Below, piece after piece: positions 1 to 37,220 of a stretch of 38,300 nt of DNA. Numbering within the stretch: position 1 is the stretch's first letter; each line of letters starts with the position of its first letter. Made by a program: the position numbers and the translations under genes. The stretch is from a virus. The stretch lies in the UHGV virus genome UHGV-0186551; one strand, written 5' to 3'. Below the pieces are notes generated by a model. It searched no databases. It was given only the letters and a program-made list of their open reading frames with translations, and was not told where the DNA came from.

Positions 1-14
1 TAGTATAAAAAAGC
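1..14. repeat. att core (attR copy), tagtataaaaaagc; window begins inside the core
   Basis: Identical to 37207..37220; is the reverse complement of the lambda core GCTTTTTTATACTAA (first base presumably just left of position 1). Confidence 0.85.
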
Positions 15-160
15 TGAACGTGAAACACTAAAAACCATTAATATCAATGCATTACAATAAATTTAGCTTAAAAAATAGACTATATAATACTGCAAAACGC
101 AACATATGCAGTCACTATGAATCAACTACTTAGATAGTATTAGTGACCTGTAACAGAGCA
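15..160. other. attR P-arm (Int arm-site/IHF/Xis binding region, phage side of attR)
   Basis: Sequence following the core recalls the lambda attP P-arm in reverse complement (recollection, not aligned); individual protein sites not mapped. Confidence 0.55.
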
Positions 161-201
161 TTAGCGCAAGGTGATTTTTGTCTTCTTGCGCTAATTTTTT
201 G
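161..201 (+). terminator. sib/tI-like hairpin with T-run (int retroregulation element in the free phage)
   Basis: ttagcgcaag ... cttgcgctaa inverted repeat followed by tttttt. Confidence 0.5.
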
Positions 202-290
202 TCAACATACTGGGTTATCTGAATTTACAGCCATGCTCAGTATCTCGATAAGCGCAGAGAAATGATGCAGTGGTGGGCGGACTGGCTTGA

Positions 291-314
291 TGAAAAGGTG
301 GAGTGAACCACCTT
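291..314 (-). terminator. Possible terminator hairpin downstream of the 218-aa gene
   Basis: aaggtgg/ccacctt stem with adjacent A-run on + (U-run on - transcript). Confidence 0.3.
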
Positions 315-422
315 AACCACTATCGAAGAGCACAAAACCTTGCAATCAAGTGCAAAGCTTTGTGTGTTATTTTTTATGGCTATATAAATTATATACTGCC
401 AGTGCTATCTAACATTTAAATA

Positions 423-1079
423 TTATGAACTATAATAAGTCCTAATCTTTACAGATGAAAGCATAATCTTCCAAGCTTGATCGCTACCCAACCACTCATC
501 GTTGGTTGGTTCATTATCACCAGATACTACATAAGTATCTGGCATATCAAAGTCTATATTGCAAAGGTCTTCTCCTTTGCGCTCCTTAAAAATAAGAAGA
601 TCTATTTTTGTTGTTGGGAATTTTTTATCCAAAACACTTCTCAGTTTATACACAGCATCTCGTTCTGCATTCAATCTAACGAGTAAAACACGTTCCGACT
701 CATTGATTTTCTCTATAAATCTTTTTCTTCTCGCCTTTATTTTTTTCATCATATTAAACAAGCAGACTTCAATACCTTGTTTTTCATAGTCATCAATAAG
801 AATATCGTGAATACTTCGAAATCCAGTCGCTGTATCTGTGATATCAATACAATTTTTAAATCTGCCATTAATTTTTATATTTTCAGGCAAGAAAAGGTGG
901 TCGCACCCCTTATTAATTATTTTTGTAACTTGAGGTAGTTTTTGAGAGGCAAACCAATCAAATGGTCCACTAAATGTCCTCAACCCAAATCGCTTTAACC
1001 TTCCTGCTGGTTGACATTTTTTACCAAGGCTTGCTATAAAATCATACTCTCCACAAGGAAGAAAAAGGCCTTTATTCAT
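423..1079 (-). CDS. Hypothetical protein, 218 aa; N-terminal motif SLGxxC...PFDW reminiscent of DUF1796 (putative papain-like fold); AT-rich accessory gene
   Basis: ORF track 423..1115; start moved to ATG at 1079 (MNKGLF...) which has an AGGAAA ribosome-binding site; AT-rich composition unlike the rest of the prophage. Confidence 0.7.
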   Translation of the reverse strand: MNKGLFLPCGEYDFIASLGKKCQPAGRLKRFGLRTFSGPFDWFASQKLPQVTKIINKGCDHLFLPENIKINGRFKNCIDITDTATGFRSIHDILIDDYEKQGIEVCLFNMMKKIKARRKRFIEKINESERVLLVRLNAERDAVYKLRSVLDKKFPTTKIDLLIFKERKGEDLCNIDFDMPDTYVVSGDNEPTNDEWLGSDQAWKIMLSSVKIRTYYSS

Positions 1080-1196
1080 ATGATTTTCCTTACATTTTAT
1101 GACGACAAAAATCATAACATTGCCTTATTAATCAGTCAAACAGTTAACAAATGCAAACAAACAAGTAAGCACATTGTTGATAATTTGTTTATTTTT

Positions 1197-1811
1197 ATGT
1201 TTTTGTTATCTATACCATTTTTTTCATTTGCTTCTGATACAAACAAAACGCCACCATATCGCATGAGGGAGTCGATGTTTGAGTTATTAAAGGAGCAAAG
1301 GGATATTGTTATGCTTGGCGATAGCATAACCGCGCGAGGAGAGTGGAATGAGCTTCTTCCTAGTTTATCTGTAGCAAATAGGGGCATTGGGGGAGATGAA
1401 GTTAAATTTATGAAAAGAAGGATTGATTCTATATTTTTATTAAAGCCCAAATATGTATTCATTATGGGCGGAACAAATGATTTCAGAAGAAAAAGAAGTG
1501 TTGATGATGTGGTTCGTGACTATAAGCATATAATAAAAAAACTACACAAACACAGAATTAATGTATTCATTCAGTCCACCCTTTACGTGTCAAGAGAAAG
1601 CAGGTTAAATGACAACATAAAAATATTAAAATTAAACAATGCAATAAATAACTATTGCTCTGTATCTAATTATTGTCGTTTCGTAGATCTTAACGTGCAC
1701 ATGGCAAAAGATAGAAAAATACTAGCTAAGTATAGCGATGATGGAGTCCATCTAAATGGTAATGGGTATTTAATGTGGGCGTCAATCATATACCCTTTAA
1801 TTAAAAAATAA
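1197..1811 (+). CDS. SGNH/GDSL-family hydrolase (esterase/lipase-like) with hydrophobic N-terminus, probably exported or membrane-anchored
   Basis: Motifs GDSIT, GIGGD, GGTNDF, DGVHLN in SGNH block order; N-terminal MFLLSIPFFSFA; start uncertain (ATG 1080, TTG 1185 or ATG 1197; track start 1011). Confidence 0.75.
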   Translation: MFLLSIPFFSFASDTNKTPPYRMRESMFELLKEQRDIVMLGDSITARGEWNELLPSLSVANRGIGGDEVKFMKRRIDSIFLLKPKYVFIMGGTNDFRRKRSVDDVVRDYKHIIKKLHKHRINVFIQSTLYVSRESRLNDNIKILKLNNAINNYCSVSNYCRFVDLNVHMAKDRKILAKYSDDGVHLNGNGYLMWASIIYPLIKK

Positions 1812-1817
1812 GAATAG

Positions 1818-1849
1818 TAAAAAACCATCTCATTATGAGGTGGTTTTTT
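1818..1849. terminator. Bidirectional rho-independent terminator between convergent hydrolase and tailspike genes
   Basis: Hairpin aaaaaccatctca / tgaggtggttttttt with A-run before and T-run after. Confidence 0.6.
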
Positions 1850-1930: not shown

Positions 1931-4330
1931 TTATTTTAGTATCCATCCGGTATTTCCTGTTCCTGTTTTTTTTTGATACCAATCACCATTATAATCAATG
2001 TACATTGACCCCTTAGGTGCGGTCACAACACCCTCAGGTGAACCGGAGCCTCTATAAATTCCAAAGAGAGTTGTACCTCTTACTTTCTCGTATGCAAACA
2101 ACAAACCATCTGAAGCCCTTCTGATACGCAACGGTTCGTGCTCTGAGTCCGATGCAAATGTAGTGGTGCCGTTTGAATCTGTTTCCCTGGAAAAACTTCC
2201 ATCTGTTCTTGTTCCTTCAATGATCGAATTTGGGTAGTTTGGATCATCAGATGAATGTAACCTAATATAGGAACTATTTGATGCTGATACCCCCCTACCC
2301 CTTAAAATCAATCCCTTAAATGATGACGTAAATAGTGCCTGGATTGAGCCATAAACAGTGTTATCACTACCGTTTTGCTGATCGTATATTCTTAGTCTTG
2401 AGCTATTATCATACATAATAGCGTTGAAGTACTCACCAAGACGTTCGCTAAATGCAACAATATTAAAAGCATTGCGCCATCTAAATGATATATTTCGCCC
2501 GCTTTCTCCGGCATCTACACCTGCATTACTTGAAGCATTGGTTATGCCAGAATTAAGGTTCTGCTCATCGTTGTTACCAGTCGCTGGTCGTATAGAGTAA
2601 ATTGTCTTTTTCTCAAGAGAATAGCTACTTCCCCATCCATAATCTGTATCAGGACTCCAGTCTCCAGAATTTGCATCCTTGGTTGTTTCCACCCAATAAG
2701 AGCCATTTGATGGAGGAACACCAATTATTCCAGAAGTCTCAATAGATGATGCAGCCCATCTTCTTCCACGCCAGTTTACAATATTAGCTCCTGCCCTCCA
2801 TGTTTCTATGCAGCTTATAATTATTTCTTCGCCACGAATAGTTAAACCTTCCGGCTCGAATCTGGCTGGATTCCCAAGAGTTGGATGGTTAAGCAACCCA
2901 TCGCGCCCATATTGCGACCTTGCATCATCGATATCTAATTTTCTTAGTAAATTACCTGTTAAATCATATGTAAAGATATGATGCTTTCCAAAAGCATTAG
3001 TGCCTCCCTTAAGTATATGTATATATCTTCCATCAGACGCAATACCTTGTACAGAGTAAGCGCCTTCAGAAGGTGAGTCGCTCATTTCCCAAACAAACAT
3101 GGGGTTTGCTAATGTTTTATCTTCAAGTTTATCAATTGATATTTTATCGTATATAAATACAGTTCGTTTAGCGGCATCACTCTTTGGTGTATTAACCATT
3201 ATTAAAAGACGACCGTCAGAAGAAATGGCAATTCCTGCACGATTGTAATCTTGAAATGGGTGACCGCTACCAGTAATCCCCCATACATTATAACTTTTTA
3301 CGTCAGACTGAGTTGTTCCTGCCCCTCGCCAAGTTATTTTACTAAACCCTTTGCCTGCAGACTCCCCATCTTCACCTGAATTGGTTACACTTGATGTATA
3401 TAAATATACTTGACCATTCTCCACCATGGCAGAAAGATCAAATCCGTGCCCAAGGTTTAATTCTGGAGAATACGCAACATGGTTTACTACCCTTCCATCA
3501 TCATAAAGATTAAACTCAACAATACGAACTCTTTCTTTATCCGACCAGGTTGGCCCAACAGGCCGTTGTGTGACAAATAGTTTTTCAATGCCATTAACAC
3601 GGCAATATGCGATCCCCTGTAACGCATTTCTGGCATTAGGATAAATTTCTGTGTTTGTTTCTCCCTGAAAACCAAAAAAAGGTTCCATCATTTTTCTCTG
3701 CGCAAGTTTGTCAGTTTCAAGTAGACGAGAAACGGAAATAAGAGAGCCATTATCTGCAACAATCCTCCCAATACCTCGAGCAGAAGATACATCAACTTCG
3801 AGAGTATTTACTGCAAAATCGCCATCAGGAACAAACATTCTATAGCCTGCGTTAGAGAATGCCTCAGTAGCGTCAGTTATTCCATCACTGATAGCCCCCC
3901 AACCGCGAACATCTTTGTCATCACGCCATCGTGCAATCTGCAATTCGGGATATTTTTTAGCACCATCCGGGTCTTCTAACTGCTGCCGTAGCTGATCCGG
4001 GTCATACTTCAGCACATTAGGGAAATAGAACTGCTGAGTGCCATATGCATCATATACAGCCATAGAATGGCCTTGAACAGTTACGAATTTGGCAATCTGC
4101 CCGTTATATACCGGATATCCAGCAGCGTTAATGATGATTGGCTGCGAAACAGGAACATGAGAGCCGTCTTCGTTCTCTACATAAACCTGAATCTGGTTTT
4201 CTGGACTTACCGGGTCAGTGTCAATTTTTCCGATATAAATTTTGCCGTTGGCTACTGCTTTAAAAGAACGCGCCATAGTGAAGAGTTGCGAAGGCATACT
4301 CACTACAACATTGGCTGTAATGTCTGTCAT
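1931..4330 (-). CDS. Tailspike, 799 aa: P22-type N-terminal head-binding domain joined to a divergent receptor-binding domain
   Basis: First ~115 aa ([11 protein letters not shown]...[11 protein letters not shown]...LKYDPDQ) match P22 tailspike N-terminus from memory; remainder unrecognised. Confidence 0.9.
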
Positions 4331-4494
4331 TTAATTTTCTCCAGACGTAGCAATGCGGAACAAGATGCAACTTGCCCGGCATTGCATTAATGTAAGTTAT
4401 GATTTGTTAACTATGAGATGAGTCTATGCAAAAAGATCTGTTGAATATTGCGTTCTATATATTTGGTTTTTGCACATTTCTGGTGTTTGCAAAG

Positions 4495-6492
4495 CTATTC
4501 TGACAACGAATCAGACTTAGCCCCCTGCGTCAGAGCGTTAATTGCCTTTTGTGCCTGCTGCATTGCTTTCTCAAAGGCTGTTGATCCGCGTGGGGTGTTT
4601 GCCATTCTGAGCATTGCATTTCTGAATGGTTCGCTCTCATAGGCGCGAGTAAGAAGTCCGTAGCTTACTGCTGCGCCAGTTGTCGCCGGGTTCATTGCCG
4701 TCCCATACCCGATAATGAACGGGATGGTTTGCTGCCCTGTGGGTGTTGTTACTGCCGCTTTTGCTGCCTGCTGAGTGGACTGAAGGTAATTTTTCAATCC
4801 TTTCAGATAAGCAGCATCCTGCCCCTTAAATGTGATGCCAGTCTGGTTTTGCAGGATGTTAAGCTGCCGAAGGAACTGGTCAGGGGATCCGCCAGATTTC
4901 TCCATCGCCTTTCCAATGATGCCATTGCGCATTTGCGCCCTGCCAACACGACCAACTGAGTTATACAGCGTCTTAATTTCCGATTTGTTCTTGCTGAATA
5001 GCATGTTGTTGACAATTTCCGGTGTCAGGTCGCCTTTCATGAGAACATTCTTCAGCCTGGTATTCTTTAGTTTCGCCGCTTCGTCAGCGTAGACGGCATT
5101 GGCCTGCTGATATTTACGGAGAGTATCGTTGCCAAGATTATGACCAATGGCACCATTGATATCGTCGGTCATCGCCTTGTAAACGCGCTGAATGGCAGCA
5201 TCGGAACGGTTTGGTAACACTGGTCGCTCACCCTTCACGTCCATTCTGAACTGACTGCGCAGGTCGCTTAATTGCTTCAAATCCAGATTTACCGGACCAT
5301 CAGGGCCAGCATTGCGAACAAGCTCATCACGATATGACTGAAGTTTTGAAATTGTCTCGTTATCAGCCACCTTACCAAGCTTCTTCAGATTAGATATCTC
5401 AGTATCAATCTGCTGAATTGCTCGCGCAGGCTGGATATTGACTCCCGCCATTGCATTCTGAACCTGCTCAAGACGGTTCCCTGCAGCACGACGAATTCCT
5501 GATGTTTTCGCTTTAAGGCTGTCAATAACAACAGCTGGATCATACTCACCGAATTTATCAGCAAATCTCTGCACCAACTGGCTTCTCGCTTCCTGTTGCG
5601 TTGCTCTCATTCCGCTTGTGCCAGCCAGGGGGATATTTTCTGCTGTCGTTTGCGCCATTTTTCCGACGCGGGAAGTAGGCTGTAACAGGTCTGTGGTGTG
5701 CAGAGGCACTCCTTCACGCTCTGCAAATCTGATAGCTTGCTGCGCTTCTGGCGCAATAGCACCACGAACTCCACGATAAGCAGCACCTAATCCACGTCCG
5801 GCAGCGTTAATAGCACCGCCAGCCAGCACACCAACGCCCAAATCGGTGGCGAGTGCTTCCGCATCATCTTTCGCACTATTTGCAGCAAGTGATCCAACTG
5901 CGTTTTCTGCTAGAAGGCGAGTTGCCCCATGAGCAATTCGACCAGCAAGTGTTGGTGCCTGTGCTGCCGCTCTCTCAACGCCAGCAGGAGTGAGGTAAGG
6001 CAATGCTTCAGCAAATACCCTTCCCTCTGTCGTTTGTGGAGTCAGCGCGCCTTGCTGAAGGCCAAAGTCCTGCTCTAATCCCTGCGTTGTTACACGTGGC
6101 GCTGGTTGATATGTACCATCGCCAATGCCGAGTTTACCGCCAGCCCAAGCCGCCGCGCTTGTTACAGCATCGGCAACTGATGCAGGTATGTTTGCCACGT
6201 TCACGCCAGCCTGCACCAGTCCGCGACCAGTCTCTTTTACTGCTTCGCCAAGATCAGACATAAATCCACTTTGCTGTGGTTGTTGCTGTGCTACTGGTTG
6301 CTGTGTCTCCACTTGCTGCACATATGGCAATGGATAGGAAGCATAGAAAGCTTGCTTAGCCTGCTCTGCATTTTCTCCGGCTTGCGGGGCAACGACTTCA
6401 TTGAAGTATTGCTCCTGAGCCTGCGCTTTTTGTTCTGGTGCTAACGCCTGATACTGTGGAGAGGCGATAACATCTTTCCATGCTTTAGCCAT
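4495..6492 (-). CDS. Ejection/internal virion protein, P22 gp16-like
   Basis: 665-aa ORF in the gp16 position after gp20; Q/A-rich. Confidence 0.8.
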   Translation of the reverse strand: MAKAWKDVIASPQYQALAPEQKAQAQEQYFNEVVAPQAGENAEQAKQAFYASYPLPYVQQVETQQPVAQQQPQQSGFMSDLGEAVKETGRGLVQAGVNVANIPASVADAVTSAAAWAGGKLGIGDGTYQPAPRVTTQGLEQDFGLQQGALTPQTTEGRVFAEALPYLTPAGVERAAAQAPTLAGRIAHGATRLLAENAVGSLAANSAKDDAEALATDLGVGVLAGGAINAAGRGLGAAYRGVRGAIAPEAQQAIRFAEREGVPLHTTDLLQPTSRVGKMAQTTAENIPLAGTSGMRATQQEARSQLVQRFADKFGEYDPAVVIDSLKAKTSGIRRAAGNRLEQVQNAMAGVNIQPARAIQQIDTEISNLKKLGKVADNETISKLQSYRDELVRNAGPDGPVNLDLKQLSDLRSQFRMDVKGERPVLPNRSDAAIQRVYKAMTDDINGAIGHNLGNDTLRKYQQANAVYADEAAKLKNTRLKNVLMKGDLTPEIVNNMLFSKNKSEIKTLYNSVGRVGRAQMRNGIIGKAMEKSGGSPDQFLRQLNILQNQTGITFKGQDAAYLKGLKNYLQSTQQAAKAAVTTPTGQQTIPFIIGYGTAMNPATTGAAVSYGLLTRAYESEPFRNAMLRMANTPRGSTAFEKAMQQAQKAINALTQGAKSDSLSE

Positions 6493-7787
6493 TAATCACC
6501 CCATAGTGAAGAAAAGTTACTGCCAGCAGGAGATTGTTGTCCTGGCGTATTCTGTACTGGCTCCTGATAATCAAACTGTTTTTTAACAGTGCTCAACTTG
6601 CTTTCAAGCTGATTTCTAATCTTTCCGATAGAGTCACGAAAAGCCTTTTCACTCATTTTGGGGCTTAGGGCACCAACCGCATCGGATAATTTTTTACCCT
6701 CAGCATCTGAAAGAGCGCCCATACCCTTCAGGGACTGCACCATAGGGAGGAAAGTTTGAGCTTTAAAGGTGTCGAGTCTTGCTTCAAAGTTAGCCGCATC
6801 AGATCCAGGAACTGTCGGAAACGCTGAGCGAATGCCTACTGCTTTTGAAAGGCCGGGGCTTTGCTCTATCTCGTTGAGAGAATCAAGCGCAGTGCTGAAC
6901 GTATCAACAGCGCCCTGAGCGGCGGCCTGTCTGTCAGCACGAGCTATTTCAGCCTTTTGCCGAACATCTGCCTGTTTCTGCTTTAGCTCTTCAAGCTTTA
7001 ACTGATTGTTTTCTCTGGCTATCTGTCTGTCCAGAGCCTTTTCTTGTAATTCTGCTCTTTGTATTTCGCGGGAAAGAGCAGCATTCTGTGCGCTGATGTT
7101 CTGACCACGTATCTGGATATCCTGACCTCGCGCTGTTAGTGCCTCGCCAGCCTGATTGCTGCGGATTGTCTCTGCCAGCCTGCCTCGGTCAATCTCACGA
7201 CCAGCCATCTTGTCCTGAACATTGAAGTAATCAATCGGACCAAGCGCGGCCATTCCAAGGTGATCAACAAACTCACCAAATCCTGATGGATTCTGCTGAT
7301 ACATCTGAGCAACGTTATTAGGATCAACACCGACGCGCGCCAGTTCCTTGGCGTTATTTTGCAGCCATGATTGCATTGCTTCTGGAGACGATGCCGCAAG
7401 GCGAGCGCCAGCAGCTAATGTGCCGATAGAATTGCGCTGGTCTTCATCAATGAATCCCATGCCTTTACGAACAGATTCAATCTGGTCTGGATATTGAGTA
7501 GCCAACTGACGCAAAGCACCGCGATCACCAGACGCATAAGCATTAGCGTATGCCTGCTGAAATTCTTTCTGCCGCTGAGCCTGCTTTTCCTGCTGAAACA
7601 CCCCCGCAATACCTGAAAGGCCTTGCAAAGCAGTCAGCCCAACATTGTTAGCGCCTGAACGCTCAATATCATTGTTCTGCCTGATAAGCTGAAGCGTATT
7701 GCCGATGTCATTTACGCTCGGAGCGTTTGAGTTGACGCCGCCGATACCAGCCAACAATCCGCCATTTGATCCTTGCCAAGTAGCCAT
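6492..7787 (-). CDS. Ejection protein, P22 gp20-like
   Basis: 431-aa ORF, position and composition; start overlaps gp16-like stop. Confidence 0.8.
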   Translation of the reverse strand: MATWQGSNGGLLAGIGGVNSNAPSVNDIGNTLQLIRQNNDIERSGANNVGLTALQGLSGIAGVFQQEKQAQRQKEFQQAYANAYASGDRGALRQLATQYPDQIESVRKGMGFIDEDQRNSIGTLAAGARLAASSPEAMQSWLQNNAKELARVGVDPNNVAQMYQQNPSGFGEFVDHLGMAALGPIDYFNVQDKMAGREIDRGRLAETIRSNQAGEALTARGQDIQIRGQNISAQNAALSREIQRAELQEKALDRQIARENNQLKLEELKQKQADVRQKAEIARADRQAAAQGAVDTFSTALDSLNEIEQSPGLSKAVGIRSAFPTVPGSDAANFEARLDTFKAQTFLPMVQSLKGMGALSDAEGKKLSDAVGALSPKMSEKAFRDSIGKIRNQLESKLSTVKKQFDYQEPVQNTPGQQSPAGSNFSSLWGD

Positions 7788-7796
7788 GATTACCCC

Positions 7797-28701: not shown

Positions 28702-28730
28702 ATGCACTCTCCGTTATTAACCATGAACAA

Positions 28731-28799
28731 AGAATACTACAGGTATTCAAAGCAATCAATACTCAGGGTATTTTTAGTTTAAGTACCTTAGCTATTAGA
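28731..28799. promoter_or_regulatory. oR/pR/pRM region: operators near gaatactacaggtattc (28732..28748), aatactcagggtatt (28758..28772), degenerate third (28783..28799); pR -10 28731..28736 and -35 28754..28759 on - strand
   Basis: Inverted-repeat operators sharing consensus with oL sites; pR -35 TTGATT, 17-bp spacer, -10 TATTCT; probable leaderless cI transcript. Confidence 0.65.
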
Positions 28800-28807
28800 A
28801 TTAAGCT

Positions 28808-29524: not shown

Positions 29525-29541
29525 TCACGCAAGGGGCGATT

Positions 29542-29910
29542 ATGGTTGGAACCGCTATAGCAAGCTTTTTGGGGATGTTGGCAATCTCAACAATTTACGG
29601 CTTAGCGCATGCTTTTATTGCGAAATCTCTATCAGAAAAAATAAGCCAGGCTTGGGCGCATAGATCTGCTCGTTTCATGATTCTAGTGGTCATAGCAATA
29701 CAAGGGATATCTGCATTTATCCTCTATGGATCAAGCTTATACCTGTTGTATCAAGGCGCGACATTTACGCCTTACACCAGTGATTACGGAACTCTATACG
29801 ATGGTAGTGAAGACATCTCTATGGCTTGGATCGTCTTTGGTTTATCTATGGCCGTGTCTGTTGTAGCAGACATCATTAAGGTAATTCTCGTCTTAACCTT
29901 CGCTGACTAA
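29542..29910 (+). CDS. Multi-pass membrane protein co-transcribed with cI (rex-position cargo)
   Basis: ATG at 29542 with AAGGGG ribosome-binding site, 18 nt after cI stop; about four hydrophobic segments; track start 29521. Confidence 0.7.
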   Translation: MVGTAIASFLGMLAISTIYGLAHAFIAKSLSEKISQAWAHRSARFMILVVIAIQGISAFILYGSSLYLLYQGATFTPYTSDYGTLYDGSEDISMAWIVFGLSMAVSVVADIIKVILVLTFAD

Positions 29911-29999
29911 CCCATAATCCCGGCAGCAATAGCTATCGGGATCCACTTCACATATCCCGCATAAAAAGCACTGAACAAGCAGACACCGAAAAAAAATAA

Positions 30000-30085
30000 A
30001 TATCCTTTGTATTCATTTGCTTATCATTATTTCACCAAAAATAAATACCTTGGGTATTTACACAATAAAATACCTACAGTATTCT
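30000..30085 (+). promoter_or_regulatory. oL/pL: operators atatcctttgtattc (30000..30014), aataccttgggtatt (30044..30058), aatacctacagtatt (30069..30083); pL -35 TTTACA 30057..30062, -10 TATTCT 30080..30085
   Basis: Same operator consensus as oR; promoter geometry mirrors pR. Confidence 0.65.
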
Positions 30086-30130
30086 TTAGCCATCAGCAGG
30101 ACGCTGATAGCCAAACGGAACAGATTGGCA

Positions 30131-30171
30131 GGCTCTTTAACATTGATGGGATTGTCCCGCCGAAATGCGGG
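30131..30171 (+). promoter_or_regulatory. nutL (boxA ggctctttaa, boxB cccgccgaaatgcggg)
   Basis: boxA followed after a 16-nt spacer by the same boxB hairpin as nutR, upstream of N. Confidence 0.75.
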
Positions 30172-30279
30172 AACCAAAGAGTAGTTGGCTTTGGGGTGAC
30201 GTGAAGTTCAGCTGCACGACGGCAACCGGAAGATAAGCACCCGGCGCGTCACCGCCAAAGTCAATCATCGGAGGTCAAC

Positions 30280-30552
30280 ATGGCAGTAGTCATTACATTT
30301 CTGGCTGACGATAACGCCAGAAATCGCCGCAGAGCACGCAGACAGGCTCAACGTGAGCAGGCAATGCAAGAACAGCGACTGGCGCGAAAAATTGCGCTAA
30401 AGCTCTCTGGTTGCGTCAGAGCAGACAAAGCAGCATCACTCGGAAGCCTTCGCTTCAAGAAGGCAGATGAATGGAGTGGAAGTATTTGCCTGCCAAACGT
30501 AGCCATTTACGCGGCAGGCTACCGGAAATCAAAACAACTGACGGCGAGGTAA
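30280..30552 (+). CDS. N: Antiterminator N (arginine-rich-motif type)
   Basis: 90 aa; ARNRRRARRQAQREQ motif; first gene after pL/nutL; GGAGG ribosome-binding site. Confidence 0.8.
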   Translation: MAVVITFLADDNARNRRRARRQAQREQAMQEQRLARKIALKLSGCVRADKAASLGSLRFKKADEWSGSICLPNVAIYAAGYRKSKQLTAR

Positions 30553-30554
30553 TT

Positions 30555-30917
30555 ATGGGTCAGGAAGAAAAATATGAGCTTAAAAAGCTAATTGGAGAAG
30601 ACGCCATAGAAGAAATTGCAGCATTAACAACAGCTATAAAGAATATTAGGTATGCGCTAAATACGCTTATCTCCTCATGCGACAAAAATAGCAGGGAATT
30701 TTTGATACTTGGCGCAGCTCTAGGAATAGTTGATGCGGCAACGCTTCACCTAATTACTCATGACGATATTCTTATTGAGCCGTATGAAACATTACTGCTT
30801 GTCAGGCAAAAAATGGCTGATGCCGCAGCAAATGGAGACCTTCAACTTTACATCGACTTAAGGAAAGTATTAAGGCGAATGGTCAGAACTGAAGGAGATA
30901 TCCCCCTGACAAAATAA
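30555..30917 (+). CDS. Hypothetical protein, 120 aa (Ral-position accessory gene)
   Basis: ATG 3 nt after N stop with GAGG ribosome-binding site; track ORF 30471..30917 trimmed. Confidence 0.65.
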   Translation: MGQEEKYELKKLIGEDAIEEIAALTTAIKNIRYALNTLISSCDKNSREFLILGAALGIVDAATLHLITHDDILIEPYETLLLVRQKMADAAANGDLQLYIDLRKVLRRMVRTEGDIPLTK

Positions 30918-31100
30918 GGGGGTGAGAGGATTTTACTATTTTTCTCGCTGTAGGGGTACACGAGAACCACCGAGCCTGATGTGGTTAAAAGACAGGCACA
31001 ATCTTTACTACCGCAAGCCACGCAGTGAAATGGGCGTGACATGCTCAGGCCGCCAGAAGCAACGCGGAAAATCAATTCCAGCTTATTACGATTGAGGTTA

Positions 31101-31370
31101 ATGATGAAGTTCAAATTGAACGATGAAGTTAAATGGTCAAGCTCATCAAACGGTGTAACGAAGGTAAAAATCGGGTTTATCGTCGAGGTGATTCCTCCTG
31201 GTGTCAACGTAAAAAAATTCGAACTAGGCCGTCTGCTAGATGCACCTGGCCTTCCGAGGAAAGAAGAGAGCTATATAGTTTGTGTAGGTCCAAGACCCGG
31301 ATCTCGAGCCAAGCCAAAATATTACTGGCCGCGAGTTAATAACCTGCGTCACTTACACGATGACAAATAG
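31101..31370 (+). CDS. Hypothetical protein, 89 aa
   Basis: ATG at 31101 preceded by GAGGT; track ORF 31041..31370 trimmed. Confidence 0.55.
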   Translation: MMKFKLNDEVKWSSSSNGVTKVKIGFIVEVIPPGVNVKKFELGRLLDAPGLPRKEESYIVCVGPRPGSRAKPKYYWPRVNNLRHLHDDK

Positions 31371-31425
31371 AAGTGGATGTCATTGTTTTACTTTTTCGCA
31401 GCAAACCACTTATTTGAGGTGAGAT

Positions 31426-31896
31426 ATGACAAAATCATGGAGCGTACCTTTTCCTGAATCAGAAACTGAACATGATGGAATGCCTGTTTTCTGGAGATTC
31501 CAAGCAACAGTTGAAGAAGATGGAATCAAAATATTCGCACTTCAATATATAGCTTTTCATCAGACAGAGCATTATGCATGGTTGGTTCCTGCGCATTGGA
31601 TTGTTAATTTTAAACCAGCACCAAATCAGTGGTTACAGGAATGGAAACAAAATAGAAATAGATATGCAATTAAGAAAGTAGCAAAAAATGCAGAAAGATC
31701 TTTTGCGTTCCCGACGAAGAAACTTGCCATTGAAAGTTTATTGCGCCGGAAGAAATACCATTTGATGAGAATCAAACAAGATTTGGCTGTTGTATCAACT
31801 CTTGTTGATGGGATGAAGAATATTGATACATCAACACCAGATATTGAATATAACTTTGGACACAACCAAGAAACAGAAAATTGGGTGTTTTATTAG
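31426..31896 (+). CDS. Hypothetical protein, 156 aa, AT-rich accessory gene
   Basis: GAGGTGAG ribosome-binding site; AT-rich composition; followed by a 9-bp-stem hairpin at 31911..31938. Confidence 0.7.
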   Translation: MTKSWSVPFPESETEHDGMPVFWRFQATVEEDGIKIFALQYIAFHQTEHYAWLVPAHWIVNFKPAPNQWLQEWKQNRNRYAIKKVAKNAERSFAFPTKKLAIESLLRRKKYHLMRIKQDLAVVSTLVDGMKNIDTSTPDIEYNFGHNQETENWVFY

Positions 31897-32000
31897 TATG
31901 AATAAGCACTGTGTATTCATTCCAACGAGTGAATACACGGAGCAATGTCGCTCGTAACTAAACAGGAGCCGACTTGTTCTGATTATTGGAAGTCTTCTTT

Positions 32001-32026
32001 GCCCTCCAGTGTGAGGGCCTTTTTAT
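32001..32026 (+). terminator. Rho-independent terminator in the pL operon
   Basis: gccctc cagtgt gagggc hairpin followed by ctttttat. Confidence 0.6.
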
Positions 32027-32090
32027 ATGCATACCAATAACGCTTCACTCGAGGCGTTTTCGTTATGCAATCAAATATAAGGAGTTACCC

Positions 32091-32225
32091 ATGATGCACT
32101 TTCAGCTCGCGGGTAGCGGCGTCATGTCCGCTTTCTACCCGCACGAATCTGAATTATCACGCCGAGTTAAACAATTAATTAGAGCAGCAAAGAAACAACT
32201 GGAGGCGTTATGCGCAATGAAATAG
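32091..32225 (+). CDS. CIII-like small protein (putative FtsH inhibitor)
   Basis: 44 aa; AAGGAG ribosome-binding site; pattern ...AG...ES.LSRR..QL resembles lambda CIII. Confidence 0.5.
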   Translation: MMHFQLAGSGVMSAFYPHESELSRRVKQLIRAAKKQLEALCAMK

Positions 32226-32362
32226 CCATTAATCACCAGATGCTTCGTGCGGCACAAAACAAAGCAGTAATAGCCAGATTTATTGGTGATTCAAAAATGT
32301 GGATTGAAGCAAATAAAGCGATGAAATCAGCTATCAACCTTCCGTGGTATCGCAGGAAATGA
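32210..32362 (+). CDS. Kil-like small protein, 50 aa
   Basis: Hand-translated; GGAGG ribosome-binding site; position after the cIII-like gene; resemblance to lambda Kil only vaguely recalled. Confidence 0.4.
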   Translation: MRNEIAINHQMLRAAQNKAVIARFIGDSKMWIEANKAMKSAINLPWYRRK

Positions 32363-32443
32363 GTTTTACAGATAACTGGTCAGACGAAGAATTCATTCGT
32401 CAGATGAACAAAATGCTCAATCAGCACAAAAAACAGGAGAAAG

Positions 32444-32755
32444 ATGATGATTCTGACTCTGAATGATAAGCGTGAAATATCGCAAATCATCGCAAGTTTT
32501 ACTGATGAAGATTACGAACGAATCAACAGTGAAGTTGATCGCCTCTGCAAACGTTGCGACCCAATAAGCGAAATGCTTCGCTCATATAAACCAGATGAAC
32601 ACACTAAGGACGCTATCGACTGGCTGGAAGATGATGACTGTGACTATCAGGAAAAAGCCGCTGAATGGTTCTGGGATGCAATAACCGAAAGAGTTAAGGC
32701 TGAATATGCCTTCTCAATATTCAAACGCAGACACATTTTTGGAGAAGCTGCATGA
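32444..32755 (+). CDS. Hypothetical acidic protein, 103 aa, directly upstream of recT
   Basis: Strong AGGAG ribosome-binding site; stop overlaps recT start. Confidence 0.7.
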   Translation: MMILTLNDKREISQIIASFTDEDYERINSEVDRLCKRCDPISEMLRSYKPDEHTKDAIDWLEDDDCDYQEKAAEWFWDAITERVKAEYAFSIFKRRHIFGEAA

Positions 32756-33663
32756 GCAATATCGTTGAATTCGTTAAACAGCAGGAGCAGTTATTCTGCG
32801 GAGCATTGACTGAACAGACGGTGACATGGGCTAAGGAAAGCCAGTTTGCAATTCAGTATTTCCAGAAAAATGATTACCTGGCTAAAACAGCACTGGCAAA
32901 TCCAACCAGCGCACAGAACGCCATCATCAATGTTGCGGCGATCGGCATCACCTTAAACCCGGCTAGCAAACTGGCTTATCTGGTTCCGCGCGACGGCATG
33001 GTGTGCCTTGATATCAGTTATATGGGATTGCTCCATATTGCAATGGAGTCTGGTGTTATCTCATGGGGTCAGGCAAAACTTGTTCATGCTAACGATACCT
33101 ATGAGTCAAACGGGCTTGATAAAGCACCAACCCATAAATACAACGCCTTCGGTGATCGTGGTGATATCGTTGGCGTTTACTGCACAGTTAAGACGCCAGC
33201 AGGTGATTATCTAACGGAAGAGATGAGTCTTGCTGAAATTGAGGCTGTAAGGAAAACAAGCAAGGCGGCATTCAGCGATAAAGGACCATGGGTAAATCAC
33301 TGGAATGAGATGGCGCGAAAGACGGTCGTAAAGCGTGCAAGCAAGTATTGGCCTAAGGCATCACGTCTTGATAGTGCTATTCACGTACTAAACGAAGAAG
33401 AAGGTGTGTGGACTGAACCAGTTATGCCGCACAAATCAGAGGAAGATATCCGCGAAGATGAACGGAAACGCCAGCAGGAAAGAACGGATAAAGCACAACT
33501 TCTTTGTGATGAAATGGCTCAGGCTGAAAACATGGATGATTTGAAGCGATATTTTGCAGAAGCATATCGCCTGACATCTGGAATGAAATTGCAGCAGAAC
33601 GTACAAGCCATTTACGCAGAATGCAAAGCGAAACTGGAGGTTGCCAGTGAGCAAACTGTATGA
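32752..33663 (+). CDS. recT: RecT-family single-strand annealing recombinase
   Basis: 303 aa; GPWVNHWNEMARKTVVKRASKYWP matches the RecT signature GPWVTHWEEMAKKTAIRRLFKYLP. Confidence 0.85.
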   Translation: MSNIVEFVKQQEQLFCGALTEQTVTWAKESQFAIQYFQKNDYLAKTALANPTSAQNAIINVAAIGITLNPASKLAYLVPRDGMVCLDISYMGLLHIAMESGVISWGQAKLVHANDTYESNGLDKAPTHKYNAFGDRGDIVGVYCTVKTPAGDYLTEEMSLAEIEAVRKTSKAAFSDKGPWVNHWNEMARKTVVKRASKYWPKASRLDSAIHVLNEEEGVWTEPVMPHKSEEDIREDERKRQQERTDKAQLLCDEMAQAENMDDLKRYFAEAYRLTSGMKLQQNVQAIYAECKAKLEVASEQTV

Positions 33664-34129
33664 AATTGCCAATGAATACGCAAAATTGATGGATTCAGAT
33701 TTAGAACCAGAGATGATTGCTGACACAATAGAAGGCATGGAAGGAGAATTTACCGATAAAATAGAGCAACTTCTTTCCGTCATTAAAAATGAATCTGGTT
33801 ATGCCGAACGCCTCAAGGAAGAGGCAAAGTCACTGAATGAGCGAGCCGCAGTAATTCAAAATAAGATTGACAGCATCAAATCATATATAGCGTCATCGCT
33901 TGAAATGGTTGGCAAGAAAAAGATTCGAGCAGGTATTCACCAGGTAACAATCCGCAAACCGTCAGAAACTGTAGAAATCATCGACTCAAGCGCCCTTCCT
34001 CCTGAATACGTTGAGTTTGAAACGACAATTAAAGCCGACAAGTTGGCAATCAAGCACCAACTAAAAGCAGGAATAAATATCCCAGGCGCTCAACTCAAGG
34101 TTGGGAAACCTTCACTTCTTATCAAATAA
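33647..34129 (+). CDS. Gp157-like recombination accessory protein
   Basis: GTG start with GGAGG ribosome-binding site; resembles the Sipho_Gp157 family that commonly accompanies phage recombinases. Confidence 0.6.
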   Translation: MSKLYEIANEYAKLMDSDLEPEMIADTIEGMEGEFTDKIEQLLSVIKNESGYAERLKEEAKSLNERAAVIQNKIDSIKSYIASSLEMVGKKKIRAGIHQVTIRKPSETVEIIDSSALPPEYVEFETTIKADKLAIKHQLKAGINIPGAQLKVGKPSLLIK

Positions 34130-34140
34130 CGGTATCGACT

Positions 34141-34455
34141 ATGAAAAAGACTCCATGGGAGAAATGGGAAGTCGATTTCTTGCGCGAGGTAGCGGCGACA
34201 ATGCCAGTTGAAGTTATCGCAGAAAAACTGGAAAGGACTGAAAAAGCAGTAATGGCGAAAGCAACAAGGATTGGAGCTGACATTGTTAGCCGACTTCGTG
34301 GAAGACGCTGGACAAGAGCCGAAGTATCACTTTTCGGTAAGTTCTCCGCAGAAGAAATAGCAATTGCAACCTGCCGCTCAATTTATTCAGTAAGAGCTAT
34401 GCGATACAAGCTAAAAAAACTCGATGAAGAAAGAGCAGGCATACAAATAAATTAA
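34141..34455 (+). CDS. Hypothetical protein, 104 aa, two internal Trp-containing repeats (possible DNA-binding)
   Basis: ORF track; repeat pattern seen in translation. Confidence 0.6.
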   Translation: MKKTPWEKWEVDFLREVAATMPVEVIAEKLERTEKAVMAKATRIGADIVSRLRGRRWTRAEVSLFGKFSAEEIAIATCRSIYSVRAMRYKLKKLDEERAGIQIN

Positions 34456-34471
34456 CATGGAGTAATTAACA

Positions 34472-34753
34472 ATGAAGCTAAACATCGACCTAGGAAAATA
34501 CGTTATTACCGGAACCAAACACGATCTGATTCTTAGCGAAAGAGGAATTATCAAAGAAGGCGAGAATGCAGGGAAAGAAACACTAAGTCGTATCGGTTAT
34601 TACAGCAAGTTTGAGCATCTGGTTAAAGAGTTATGCAACCGTGAAATCCTGTTATCTCAGGCGCAGACGCTACAGGATATTCAGCAGCATATCGAGACTT
34701 TAGGTATGTCACTTAGCATGGCTATTGACCAGTTCGTGGAGAGTAAATCATGA
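34472..34753 (+). CDS. Hypothetical protein, 93 aa
   Basis: ORF track. Confidence 0.55.
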
Positions 34754-34917
34754 GAGGACTTACATACAATCCCGGCATTCTTCCGGCAGAAATGATTATT
34801 CGTCAACGCGTAAAGCCAATGCCATCGAGAGAGGAATTGCTTAAGCGAAATTCTTTTCTGTCAGTGAATCAAAACAAATATCTGAATGCGATGTGGCGCA
34901 AAGGAGGCAACCAGTGA
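34750..34917 (+). CDS. Hypothetical protein, 55 aa
   Basis: Hand-translated; ATG overlaps upstream stop by 4 nt. Confidence 0.4.
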
Positions 34918-35018
34918 GAAAGATTGGCTATCAGGCACTACGTGAGGCGGCAGAGCAGGCAATGCATGACGACTGGTGATTTGATGCGGACCTTTTCCAT
35001 GAGCTGGCAACACCATCG

Positions 35019-35471
35019 ATGGTGCTGGCACTACTGGATGAACGGGAAAGAAACCAGCAATACGTCAAACGCCGCGACCAGGAGAACGAGGAAATTGCGC
35101 TAACGGTAGGGAAGCTGCGCGTTGAGCTTGAAGCAGTAAAATCAAAACTCAACGAGCAGCGTGAATATTACGAGGGAGTAATCGCGTATGGGGGTAAGCG
35201 CATAGCAGAACTGGTAGCCGAACTCGTAAGCCAGACTTACAAGTTGAATGAGATGTCGGGCAACTCTCCGGTAACTCCGTCTGTCTGGATGAGCTGTAGT
35301 GAGCGAATGCCGGACGACGCGCAGTGGTGCGTAGTTGAAGCCGCAGACGGGTATTACGTGCAATGCTGGTCTGAAGGTCAAGGATGGCTTGGAGATGACA
35401 TCAGCCTACGTAATTGCGATGTAATCAGATGGATGACGATTCCTGAACCGCCGGAGCAGGATGGTGAATAA
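35019..35471 (+). CDS. DUF551-domain protein (coiled-coil N-terminus, DUF551-like C-terminus)
   Basis: C-terminal pattern W..V.A.DGYY..C..........VIRWMTIPEPP typical of DUF551. Confidence 0.7.
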   Translation: MVLALLDERERNQQYVKRRDQENEEIALTVGKLRVELEAVKSKLNEQREYYEGVIAYGGKRIAELVAELVSQTYKLNEMSGNSPVTPSVWMSCSERMPDDAQWCVVEAADGYYVQCWSEGQGWLGDDISLRNCDVIRWMTIPEPPEQDGE

Positions 35472-35557
35472 TGCCGCCAGTTAAAGTTGTGATTATCACT
35501 TTGGTGATGATAGTGATTGCGAGAATCATGTCTGGTGAAGTTTGGTGGATATGGTAA
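35471..35557 (+). CDS. Possible 28-aa hydrophobic peptide (MPPVKVVIITLVMIVIARIMSGEVWWIW)
   Basis: ATG overlaps DUF551 stop (TAATG); single predicted transmembrane helix; hand-translated. Confidence 0.3.
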   Translation: MPPVKVVIITLVMIVIARIMSGEVWWIW

Positions 35558-35590
35558 TGGCTAAGGCAGCAGCAGAGCGCAACTAACAAT

Positions 35591-35646
35591 CCTCGCACTC
35601 GCGGGGATTTCTTTTATCTGAACTCGCTACGGCGAGTTTTGTTTTA
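35591..35646 (+). terminator. Tandem hairpins with T-runs upstream of orf55/xis
   Basis: cctcgcactcgcgggg + atttctttt and aactcgctacggcgagtt + ttgtttt. Confidence 0.5.
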
Positions 35647-35658
35647 TGGAGATGATAA

Positions 35659-35826
35659 ATGCACTTCCGAGTCACAGGTGAATGGAATGGAGAACCATTC
35701 AACAGAGTTATCGAAGCAGAGAACATCAACGACTGCTATGACCACTGGATGATATGGGCGCAGATAGCACATGCAGACGTAACCAATATTTGTATTGAAG
35801 AACTGAAAGAACACCAAGCCGCCTGA
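35659..35826 (+). CDS. Lambda orf55-like hypothetical protein
   Basis: 55 aa hand-translated (MHFRVTGEWNGEPF...); lies upstream of xis as in lambda. Confidence 0.55.
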   Translation: MHFRVTGEWNGEPFNRVIEAENINDCYDHWMIWAQIAHADVTNICIEELKEHQAA

Positions 35827-35865
35827 TGGCGGTTTTTTCTTGCGTGTAATTGCGGAGACTTTGCG

Positions 35866-36084
35866 ATGTACTTGACACTTCAGGAGTGGAACGCACGCCA
35901 GCGACGCCCAAGAAGCCTTGAAACAGTTCGTCGATGGGTACGCGAGTGCAGGATATTCCCTCCTCCTGTTAAGGACGGAAGAGAGTATTTGTTCCACGAA
36001 TCAGCGGTAAAGGTTGACTTAAATCGACCAGTAACAGGTAGCCTTTTGAAGAGGATCAGAAATGGGAAGAAGGCGAAGTCATGA
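35866..36084 (+). CDS. xis: Excisionase Xis
   Basis: 72 aa, MYLTLQEWNARQRRPRSLETVRRWVRECRIFPPPVKDGREYLFHESAVKVDLNRPVTG.LLKRIRNGKKAKS as in lambda Xis. Confidence 0.95.
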   Translation: MYLTLQEWNARQRRPRSLETVRRWVRECRIFPPPVKDGREYLFHESAVKVDLNRPVTGSLLKRIRNGKKAKS

Positions 36085-37132
36085 GCGCCGGGATTTACCC
36101 CCTAATCTTTATATAAGAAACAATGGATATTACTGCTACAGGGACCCAAGAACGGGTAAAGAGTTTGGATTAGGCCGAGACAGGAGGATAGCAATCACTG
36201 AAGCAATACAGGCCAACATTGAGTTATTTTCAGGACACAAACACAAGCCTCTGACAGCGAGAATCAACAGTGATAATTCTGTTACGTTACATTCATGGCT
36301 TGATCGCTACGAAAAAATCCTCGCCAGCAGAGGAATCAAGCAGAAGACACTTATAAATTACATGAGCAAAATTAAAGCAATAAGGAGGGGTCTGCCTGAT
36401 GCTCCACTTGAAGACATCACCACAAAAGAAATTGCGGCAATGCTCAATGGATACATAGACGAGGGCAAGGCGGCATCAGCCAAGTTAATCAGATCAACAC
36501 TGAGCGATGCATTCCGAGAGGCAATAGCTGAAGGCCATATAACAACAAACCCGGTCGCTGCCACTCGCGCAGCAAAATCAGAGGTAAGGAGATCAAGGCT
36601 TACGGCTGACGAATACCTGAAAATTTATCAAGCAGCAGAATCATCACCATGTTGGTTAAGACTTGCAATGGAACTGGCTGTTGTTACCGGGCAGCGAGTT
36701 GGTGATTTATGCGAAATGAAGTGGTCTGATATCGTAGATGGATATCTTTATGTCGAGCAAAGCAAAACAGGCGTAAAAATTGCCATCCCTACAACATTGC
36801 ATGTTGATGCTCTCGGGATATCAATGAAGGAAACACTTGATAAATGCAAAGAGATTCTTGGCGGAGAAACCATAATTGCATCTACTCGTCGTGAACCGCT
36901 TTCATCCGGCACAGTATCAAGGTATTTTATGCGCGCACGAAAAGCATCAGGTCTTTCCTTCGAAGGGGATCCGCCTACCTTTCACGAGTTGCGCAGTTTG
37001 TCTGCAAGACTCTATGAGAAGCAGATAAGCGATAAATTTGCTCAACATCTTCTCGGGCATAAGTCGGACACCATGGCATCACAGTATCGTGATGACAGAG
37101 GCAGGGAGTGGGACAAAATTGAAATCAAATAA
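36062..37132 (+). CDS. int: Tyrosine integrase Int
   Basis: 356 aa matching lambda Int as recalled; overlaps xis 3' end as in lambda. Confidence 0.95.
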   Translation: MGRRRSHERRDLPPNLYIRNNGYYCYRDPRTGKEFGLGRDRRIAITEAIQANIELFSGHKHKPLTARINSDNSVTLHSWLDRYEKILASRGIKQKTLINYMSKIKAIRRGLPDAPLEDITTKEIAAMLNGYIDEGKAASAKLIRSTLSDAFREAIAEGHITTNPVAATRAAKSEVRRSRLTADEYLKIYQAAESSPCWLRLAMELAVVTGQRVGDLCEMKWSDIVDGYLYVEQSKTGVKIAIPTTLHVDALGISMKETLDKCKEILGGETIIASTRREPLSSGTVSRYFMRARKASGLSFEGDPPTFHELRSLSARLYEKQISDKFAQHLLGHKSDTMASQYRDDRGREWDKIEIK

Positions 37133-37205
37133 TGATTTTATTTTGACTGATAGTGACCTGTTCGTTGCAACAAATTGATAAGCAATGCTTTTTTATAATG
37201 CCAAC
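37133..37205. other. attL P'-arm
   Basis: Sequence between int stop and core recalls the lambda P' arm in reverse complement (not aligned). Confidence 0.7.
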
Positions 37206-37220
37206 TTAGTATAAAAAAGC
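37206..37220. repeat. att core (attL copy), ttagtataaaaaagc
   Basis: Reverse complement of the lambda 15-bp core; 37207..37220 repeats positions 1..14. Confidence 0.9.

Follow-up and report, generated by a model that had tools for sequence, protein, structure and literature searches.

A P22-like prophage at the lambda attachment site of Escherichia coli, composed of modules shared with several lambdoid phages

Known relatives and the place of the prophage

P22-like phages are mosaically related lambdoid phages, with mosaic early and nin regions (PMC2629481), which package their DNA by the headful mechanism and whose coat proteins fall into the established P22, CUS-3 and Sf6 types (PMC10345575). 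The stretch analysed here, UHGV virus genome UHGV-0186551 (38,300 nucleotides, referred to throughout as the window), holds a single prophage at positions 1-37220. We read it as one apparently intact temperate P22-like (Lederbergvirus) prophage, located at the lambda attB site and built by module exchange among lambdoid phages, a reading to which we give a probability of about 0.9. A preliminary description, made from the letters of the sequence, had proposed a mosaic genome of lambdoid modules, and comparison over the whole length, in which the best donor switches repeatedly, bears out that proposal. Proteins were compared by tblastn with nine reference phages and directly with lambda, whereas nucleotide maps and tiling used 11 reference phages.

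The best overall phage matches are the Lederbergvirus phages vB_EcoP 683R2 (ON470594) and 611R6 (ON470589), at 61-63% of the segment searched. Coverage by phage records was searched on two segments, 1-25000 and 20000-38300, and the top record covers no more than 63% of either, i.e. uniform similarity to one reference phage is not seen. Phage 683R2 shares its tailspike, GDSL and DUF1796 genes with the window at 99.9%, as well as the RecT block, and the TerS, nin, replication, immunity and RecT regions of 611R6 are 97-100% identical to those of the window. Unlike the window, both phages have an integrase and excisionase of the HK620/CPS-53 type, at another site, along with Sf6-type coat, scaffold and portal proteins and a 21-type Q; the capsid of the window is CUS-3-type and its Q is that of lambda.

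Phages CUS-3 (CP000711), vB_EcoP-720R6 (ON470605) and JEP4 (MT740315) have capsid proteins and gp4 of the same subtype as the window; lambda-type int is also present, with 100% identity, in 720R6 and JEP4, and 720R6 adjoins ybhB/bio, i.e. the same attB. These three phages differ from the window in their tailspikes (an endosialidase in CUS-3), in their immunity, in having Erf or Sak4 rather than RecT, in their 21-type Q and in the presence of an ant/mnt region that separates gene 16 from the tailspike. Because 720R6 and JEP4 already pair a P22-like virion with lambda int and xis, the prophage joins known modules in a new way but does not represent a new kind of element.

The other references each share a different set of genes with the window. 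HK620 (NC_002730) has identical cI and cro and an N that is 93% identical, and its KilA-N, hkbL, needle, RusA and NinH genes also match; it differs in its IntS-type integrase, Sf6-type capsid, helicase (31%), Sak4-type recombinase and beta-helix tailspike. Sf6 (NC_005344) is like the window in TerL, the ejection proteins, Rz/Rz1, NinB, Dam and the absence of an ant region, but its capsid subtype and the DNA-binding part of its TerS are different, its immunity is 434-like, and it has Erf, an IntS integrase, the oac conversion gene and a 21-type Q accompanied by tRNAs. P22 itself (NC_002371) has the same gene order (3-2-1-8-5-4-10-26-14-7-20-16-9), protein families and tailspike head-binding domain, and related helicase (90%) and Q (97%) proteins; its TerS and TerL, however, gave no tblastn match in the comparison with the window, which has none of immI, gtrABC, erf/abc and the thrW integrase of P22. 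Finally, lambda (NC_001416) shares att, int, xis, Q, the pR' leader, S, R and NinB, and HK97 (NC_002167) shares int and xis (100%), O and the DnaB helicase (99%), gp45, cIII and kil; both are cos-packaging siphoviruses, and none of their virion genes is found in the window.

The prophage is 99.96% identical to that in E. coli SB0258h1 (NZ_CP071954), the differences being 15 scattered substitutions and one 1-bp indel at 34967; in this strain its neighbours are bioA-ybhB on one side and ybhC on the other. The same prophage is present in a second complete genome, that of WP3-W18-ESBL-08 (NZ_AP022003, Tokyo; locus L021). These two carrier genomes, from New Zealand and Japan, were assembled independently, and they are the only two of 5,426 complete E. 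coli genomes with at least 80% of both window halves, although pieces of the prophage occur in thousands.

The 15-bp core of the lambda att site, TTAGTATAAAAAAGC, lies at 37206-37220 and again at window positions 0-14, the window beginning at core base 2; the core-to-core length is 37,206 bp, which would also be the size of the excised genome, and host DNA (ybhC) runs from 37221 on. At the left end, attR (P-O-B', 1-210) consists of core bases 2-15 at 1-14 followed by a lambda-type P arm with P1, P2 and the sib/tI hairpin, which is 89% identical to lambda and 92% identical to HK97 (alignment to lambda 27528-27737 and to HK97); the P1 Int arm site has one mismatch to lambda, and P2 and the sib hairpin are identical. 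At the right end, attL (B-O-P', 37133-37220) contains the whole core and a P' arm that adjoins int, with the window's last 200 bp (P' arm) being 100% identical to lambda. Thus, the window reads attR to attL of a prophage occupying the attB site of lambda, between ybhB/bioA and ybhC, with identical cores at the site between bio and gal and with the arm-type sites retained. Between these ends there is a single lambdoid gene set in canonical order, in which homologues of all the genes essential in P22 are intact open reading frames (ORFs).

Module origins and junctions

Alignment of the 38,300 bases assigned 5,551 to lambda, 1,568 to P22 (at 90% identity or more), 8,603 to HK620, 11,897 to Sf6 and 10,042 to HK97. 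A 200-bp identity map reveals blocks of 95-100% identity abutting stretches with no similarity, and tiling with the 11 references placed 351 of 373 100-bp bins at 93% or more, with dozens of switches, roughly 20 of them major. Lambda-like pieces are scattered over at least five separate places, and there are intragenic junctions in TerS, O, Rz and the tailspike. Of the short conserved islands, one, at 31906-32024, corresponds to the Sf6 'boundary sequence' bsq4 (tL2A), and a further island, at 25662-25745, coincides with bsq6 as annotated in Sf6. Given these boundary sequences, the gene remnants described below and the sibling prophage with its two exchanged cassettes, the junctions are best regarded as recombination breakpoints; the preliminary description was right on their nature, but the number that it implied, about five, was too small.

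The sibling prophage from Tokyo is 99.85-99.99% identical to the window save for two sharp-edged replacements. Window positions 20905-21403, comprising the lambda-identical leader from qut to S, are replaced in the sibling by a NUMOD4 gene, and positions 22672-23218, which encode a DUF1364 protein and an 89-residue ORF, by a hypothetical gene and a NUMOD4-HNH gene. The pR' leader at 20905-21403 is, therefore, a swappable cassette, and the edge of this swap, 21404, is also the start of homology with P22, HK620 and HK97. Both swaps are recent and were possibly driven by homing endonucleases.

The integration cassette (35659-37132, plus strand) consists of a homologue of lambdap35, xis (35866-36084) and int (36062-37132). 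Int is a tyrosine recombinase with the lambda arm-binding domain (PF09003 and PF00589), which differs from lambda Int at three residues and is 100% identical to HK97 Int; the lambda-type Xis (PF07825) differs from that of lambda at one residue. At the nucleotide level 35584-37220 is 97.6% identical to lambda, and int and xis are 98-100% identical to HK97. At the other end of the prophage, where the cargo genes give way to the lambda P arm, lies the 3' remnant of an integrase gene of the HK620/Sf6 (IntS) type, comprising its last ~28 codons (223-306, plus strand; a partial coding sequence (CDS) in RefSeq). The region 223-354 aligns with HK620 133-1 at 93%, the int gene of HK620 spanning 50-1207, and in 683R2 an intact integrase gene is present at this place. 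These observations imply that the lambda attP-int-xis cassette replaced an IntS-attP-xis cassette in a P22-like recipient. Upstream of the integration cassette is a 5' fragment of ea22 (34913-35214, plus strand; 88% to lambda 30396-30095), annotated as a partial ead/Ea22 CDS; the rest of ea22 and ea8.5 are absent relative to lambda.

The virion block, itself mosaic, spans TerS (17619-18059) to the tailspike (1931-4330), and the top-matching phage records are those of Lederbergvirus. The preliminary description had called it P22-like, which is correct as to gene order and as to the families of coat, portal, gp4, gp10, gp7, gp20 and the tailspike head-binding domain (PF11651, PF16510, PF11650, PF11134, PF25688, PF16928 and PF09008 all score well over their cut-offs), but not as to subtypes, which are those of CUS-3 for the capsid and TerS and of Sf6 for TerL and the ejection proteins. 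The CUS-3-subtype capsid region (11521-16205, minus strand; PF11651, PF16510) encodes the coat (11751-13004), scaffold (13023-13916) and portal (14007-16205) proteins together with a small ORF. These three proteins and gp4 are 95-100% identical to those of CUS-3, 720R6 and JEP4 (coat, 95% to CUS-3), whereas coat, portal and gp4 are only 29%, 35% and 41% identical to their P22 counterparts and the scaffold has no match in P22 (tblastn). The tail machine and head completion genes (8495-11540, minus strand) encode gp14 (DUF2824), the gp26 needle, which is 93-96% identical to those of HK620 and CUS-3, gp10 and the CUS-3-type gp4.

The genes for the Sf6-type ejection proteins, i.e. gp16-like, gp20-like and gp7-like (4495-8492, minus strand; PF16928, PF25688), follow. 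Their products gp7, gp20 and gp16 are 96-98% identical to Sf6, compared with 34-84% for P22. The gap between gene 16 and the tailspike is just 164 bp (4331-4494) and, as in Sf6, there is no immI region with mnt, arc, ant and sieA; P22, CUS-3, 611R6, 720R6 and JEP4 differ from the window at this point.

TerL and TerS are encoded at 16207-18059 (minus strand). TerL belongs to the PBSX/Terminase_3 type (PF04466; TIGR01547, E 1e-122) and is 99% identical to Sf6 gp2, and also to CUS-3. TerS (17619-18059), of the CUS-3/611R6 type, is chimeric with respect to Sf6 and HK620, its final ~23 residues being identical, in keeping with the 99% identity of TerL, and the remainder about 35% identical; since it is mostly unlike Sf6 gp1, its pac specificity should differ from that of Sf6. 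The lambda cosN site, similarity to the cos region and homologues of Nu1/A are all absent from the window, as the preliminary description had claimed for the cos-type terminase genes, and the pac sequence of P22 is absent from the window as well. The placement of TerL in the headful clade, together with the lack of cos and of Nu1/A, supports packaging by the headful (pac) mechanism, which would match the P22-like phages in general.

The immunity region (28120-30917) is of the HK620 type and encodes cII and cro on the minus strand, the OR region, and cI, an hkaS-like gene, N and an hkaQ-like gene on the plus strand. The region 28075-30929 is 98% identical to HK620 at the nucleotide level. CI (HTH_3 and Peptidase_S24 domains) and Cro are 100% identical to HK620, compared with 43% and 63% for lambda, respectively (tblastn), N is 93% identical to HK620, and cII is 91% identical to HK620 and P22. 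The lambda-type immunity of the preliminary description thus stands for the layout but not for the specificity, which the sequences of cI and cro assign to HK620 (imm-HK620). The intact HK620-type N and the hkaQ-like gene are followed by the 3' remnant of an Sf6/lambda-type N (31004-31096, plus strand), annotated as a partial 'regulator' CDS and 95.6% identical to Sf6 25272-25361, which lies inside Sf6 N. The 300 bp 3' of this N stub, 31100-31400, have no match in any reference used. The genes that follow (31426-32362, plus strand), an HK97 gp45-like gene, cIII and kil, are all HK97-type, with cIII and kil 98-100% identical.

Replication is encoded at 25742-27936 (minus strand) by a DnaB-type helicase gene (25742-27118; PF03796/PF00772) and a gene for an O initiator (27115-27936; PF04492). 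The preliminary description had likewise named an O initiator with a DnaB-type helicase in place of lambda P, and tblastn found no homologue of the lambda P helicase loader in the window. The helicase partner is of the DnaB family, as are P22 gene 12 and HK97 gp55; both O and the helicase are 99% identical to HK97 (tblastn), compared with 50% (gene 18) and 90% (gene 12) for P22. Inside O, at 27512-27580, are iteron-like repeats, i.e. three 22-nt copies spaced by 23-24 nt. In O proteins the origin is recognised by the N-terminal part, and contact with the helicase or its loader is made by the C-terminal part. The O of CUS-3 and JEP4 matches that of the window over the C-terminal half only, which goes together with an identical helicase; the N-terminal half in the window, where the iteron-like repeats lie, belongs to the HK97/611R6 type. 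There is, therefore, a junction inside O beside the iterons, a position consistent with this division of labour.

The recombination module (32447-34917, plus strand) comprises a 102-residue ORF, RecT (PF03837, E 2e-32), Gp157 (Sipho_Gp157, PF05565; PHROG 253, 'Mu Gam-like end protection'), a 104-residue ORF, DUF5405 and DUF2737. That RecT and a Gp157-like protein stand in place of exo/bet/gam, none of which occurs in the window, had been proposed beforehand and is upheld. The RecT block is 97-99% identical to 611R6, 683R2 and HK140 and is not present in lambda, P22, Sf6, HK620 or HK97 (tblastn). The 102-residue ORF beside RecT has no assigned function, and the 104-residue ORF has weak matches to winged-helix and D5-like regulators.

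Further lambda-like nucleotide blocks lie at 19799-22137 (95.6%), in the late control and lysis regions, and at 24448-24892 (94.6%), in the nin region. The late control region (20828-22127, minus strand) comprises lambda Q (21504-22127), which has two residue differences from lambda, and the pR'/qut/tR'/orf-64 leader (20905-21403), which is 100% identical to lambda. The lysis genes (19610-20827, minus strand) are S, R, Rz (19610-20047) and the embedded Rz1 (19666-19848). S differs from lambda at one residue (99%), with the dual-start MKM kept, and R at three (98%); R has no Pfam match, and its identity rests on the 98% to lambda R. Homology to lambda ends at 19799, within Rz, such that the first third of Rz is lambda-like and the remainder, with Rz1, is of the Sf6/P22/HK97 type: Rz is 57% identical to lambda but 97% identical to Sf6, HK97 and CUS-3, and Rz1 is 92% identical to Sf6. 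The lambda-type lysis proposed earlier hence holds for S, R and the start of Rz only, whereas the statement that int, xis, att, Q, S, R and ninB are near-identical to lambda is confirmed, with 1-6 residue differences per protein and identical att cores.

The nin region (22124-25669, minus strand) is finely mosaic and encodes NinH, RusA, DUF1364, the 89-residue hypothetical protein, NinF, NinX, NinE, a Dam methyltransferase, NinB and three small ORFs. NinB has six residue differences from lambda and is slightly nearer to Sf6. The Dam-type N6-adenine methyltransferase (23924-24451; TIGR01712) is also found in Sf6, HK97 and HK140, but not in lambda or P22. Between the lysis and packaging modules lie genes for a DUF2560 protein, an hkbL-like protein and a KilA-N/ORF11CD3 protein of the HK620 type (18062-19408, minus strand). 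The last of these (18911-19408; HK620 hkbK-like) gave a weak match to PDC-S22, a candidate defence family of PADLOC (E 1e-8 over 30 residues), and PADLOC applied to the cargo and accessory genes found no defence system beyond it. Scans of the entire window for tRNAs and with Rfam gave no match, and NCBIfam gave none for the cargo, tailspike, TerS, N or R.

Tailspike and cargo genes

The tailspike (799 residues; 1931-4330, minus strand) has a P22-type head-binding domain at residues 1-113 (PF09008, E 1e-66) and is 99.9% identical to that of 683R2. For the receptor part, sequence searches gave no match to a receptor domain of solved structure; past the head-binding domain, matches in the Protein Data Bank cover only residues 113-175 and an N-terminal stretch, and PF21311 scores below its cut-off (16.5 vs 23.7 bits). 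The AlphaFold (AF2) model has a pLDDT of about 90 over roughly residues 140-740, and a Foldseek search with it returned 5efv, 6v8i and 6iab (E about 2e-11 to 2e-9, probability 1.0), i.e. the receptor-binding proteins of the staphylococcal phages phi11 (Gp45), 80alpha and P68, as well as GH43 propellers. The receptor domain (residues ~120-799; window 1931-3973) is thus predicted to be a five-bladed beta-propeller, and not the beta-helix that is the usual fold of P22-like spikes. In other phages, homologous receptor domains are joined to at least four different N-terminal adaptors.

Two divergent genes lie between the spike and att, an interval that is the usual slot for lysogenic conversion genes, and this cargo pair has a low GC content (31-34%). 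The first encodes a DUF1796 protein of 218 residues (423-1079, minus strand; PF08795, E 8e-16), with invariant Cys22, His91 and Asp92 and a model pLDDT of 93. DUF1796 occurs in one of 50,697 phage records and has only 13 homologues in a large protein database; a scan of species-representative genomes gave no relatives, and no mention of it was found in the literature. A strong promoter-like site on the minus strand, at 1139-1111, fits the DUF1796 start at 1079. The second gene encodes a protein of the GDSL/SGNH esterase family (1185-1811, plus strand; PF13472, E 1e-21). RefSeq places its start at 1275; homology to its relatives, however, extends back to about 1236, with a signal-peptide-like segment (LFIFMFLLSIPFFSFA/SD) ahead of it, and the true start is probably upstream, at TTG 1185 or ATG 1197. 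The protein is probably secreted, its homologues carrying signal peptides.

The cargo pair was compared across five other loci (L013, L014, L015, L016 and L018). In kps-type capsule loci of Pseudomonas, a DUF1796 homologue (57%) is divergently paired with a GDSL gene (46%), and the adjoining gene encodes a propeller protein homologous to the spike domain (23%, E 4e-9; L013, 5847-6842, and L016, 6076-7122), probably a lipoprotein with Cys27 after an N-terminal leader in L013. The contig of an unrelated temperate siphovirus (L018) has a corresponding trio (fibre 62%, GDSL 48%, DUF1796 54%), arranged and oriented as in the window, 683R2 and the capsule loci, and in another siphovirus contig (L015) DUF1796 lies directly beside a homologous fibre gene (29%, E 3e-60). 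Two contigs with the same receptor domain but no recognisable lysogeny module do not have the GDSL-DUF1796 pair.

This gene neighbourhood suggests that the GDSL-DUF1796 pair probably modifies the surface polysaccharide which is recognised by the spike, following a logic like that of Sf6 oac or CUS-3 neuO. It also suggests that capsule loci and phage tail genes have exchanged material, in either direction. The stronger proposal, that the spike receptor domain, GDSL and DUF1796 form one mobile cassette for recognising and modifying a surface polysaccharide, we hold tentatively, at less than even odds.

Alternative readings and implications

Several points weigh against an intact prophage formed by module exchange. 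The att P arm is only about 89-90% identical to lambda, being an HK97 variant, albeit with P1 and P2 kept; RecT has no partner exonuclease of the RecE or lambda Exo type recognisable in the flanking ORFs (Pfam, PHROGs); no pac site was identified for the CUS-3-type TerS; and, at 37.2 kb, the prophage is slightly shorter than Sf6, HK620 and CUS-3 (38.3-40.2 kb), which would mean a larger terminal redundancy. Gene content, identities, boundaries, remnants and integration site are matters of direct observation, whereas inducibility, headful packaging and the role of the cargo are read from the sequence. Some of these points, i.e. the P arm 10% diverged from lambda, the short length and RecT lacking an exonuclease, together with the three gene remnants, are what would be expected of a defective (cryptic) prophage whose modules are a decaying relic, incapable of excision, replication or virion formation. 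We consider such decay unlikely because the homologues of all P22-essential genes are full-length and 93-100% identical to those of phages that have been propagated, the remnants derive from genes that were displaced rather than from essential genes that were inactivated, the att cores are perfect and Int is 100% identical to that of HK97; moreover, two strains from different continents keep the element at 99.8-100% identity.

Less probable still is that a lambda/HK97 early backbone took in a P22-type virion module, even though 19000-37220 matches the siphoviruses HK97, HK140 and HK630 as well as podoviruses, and Int, Xis, O, helicase, cIII and kil are 98-100% identical to HK97. The intS stub at 223-306, beside the tailspike and cargo genes, implies that it was a P22-like phage of the HK620/683R2 layout that received att-int-xis, and the immunity region, the RecT block and most of nin are 97-100% identical to the P22-like phages 611R6 and 683R2; in so mosaic a pool the question is, however, largely semantic. 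An assembly artefact, or a lambda-like remnant and a P22-like prophage lying adjacent or nested and read as one, is the default alternative wherever differing matches lie side by side, but no positive evidence for it was found and we regard it as very improbable. Two complete genomes, each assembled independently, show the same structure, there is one pair of att cores, no function is duplicated, the lambda-like pieces do not form one block, and the genes follow the single canonical order att-int-xis-(recombination)-cIII-N-cI-cro-cII-O-helicase/P-nin-Q-S-R-Rz-virion. Tandem prophages, an assembly chimera and a lambda derivative were all rejected.

If the prophage is intact, as we favour, its life cycle would draw on each of these sources. 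Integration and excision would employ the lambda/HK97-type Int and Xis on lambda attP, and lysogeny would be maintained by the HK620-type, LexA-like cI with cro, cII and cIII. Early transcription would proceed by antitermination through the HK620-type N; the HK97/P22-type O would bind the iterons in its own gene and recruit the phage DnaB-type helicase without need of a loader of the lambda P type, and RecT, with Gp157, would serve recombination. Late transcription would be under the control of lambda Q acting at lambda pR'/qut. The CUS-3-type TerS and Sf6-type TerL would package DNA by headfuls from pac into virions with a CUS-3-type capsid, Sf6-type ejection proteins and a P22-type tail machine, released by the lambda-type S holin and R endolysin with the Sf6/P22-type Rz/Rz1 spanins. 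Adsorption would be via the tailspike with its predicted five-bladed propeller, and the GDSL/SGNH and DUF1796 proteins would probably alter the polysaccharide that it binds.

The overall results provide a textbook case of lambdoid mosaicism in which the scars, i.e. the stub of a displaced int, the stub of a displaced N and the sibling with two exchanged cassettes, are unusually legible, and they reveal that the attB site of lambda is used by P22-like podoviruses bearing lambda's own Int and Xis. A lysogen has this attB occupied, should be immune to phages of HK620 immunity but not to lambda, and may transduce via headful packaging. Within the prophage, new biology could come only from the tailspike and cargo cassette, in which an uncharacterised domain family, DUF1796, is paired with an SGNH enzyme and both are tied to capsule loci. 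If the cassette proposal is correct, GDSL-DUF1796 would represent an undescribed lysogenic conversion system, e.g. for the acetylation or deacetylation of capsule or O-antigen, the lysogen would be shielded from phages that use the cognate propeller spike, and such cassettes would move between bacterial capsule loci and phages.

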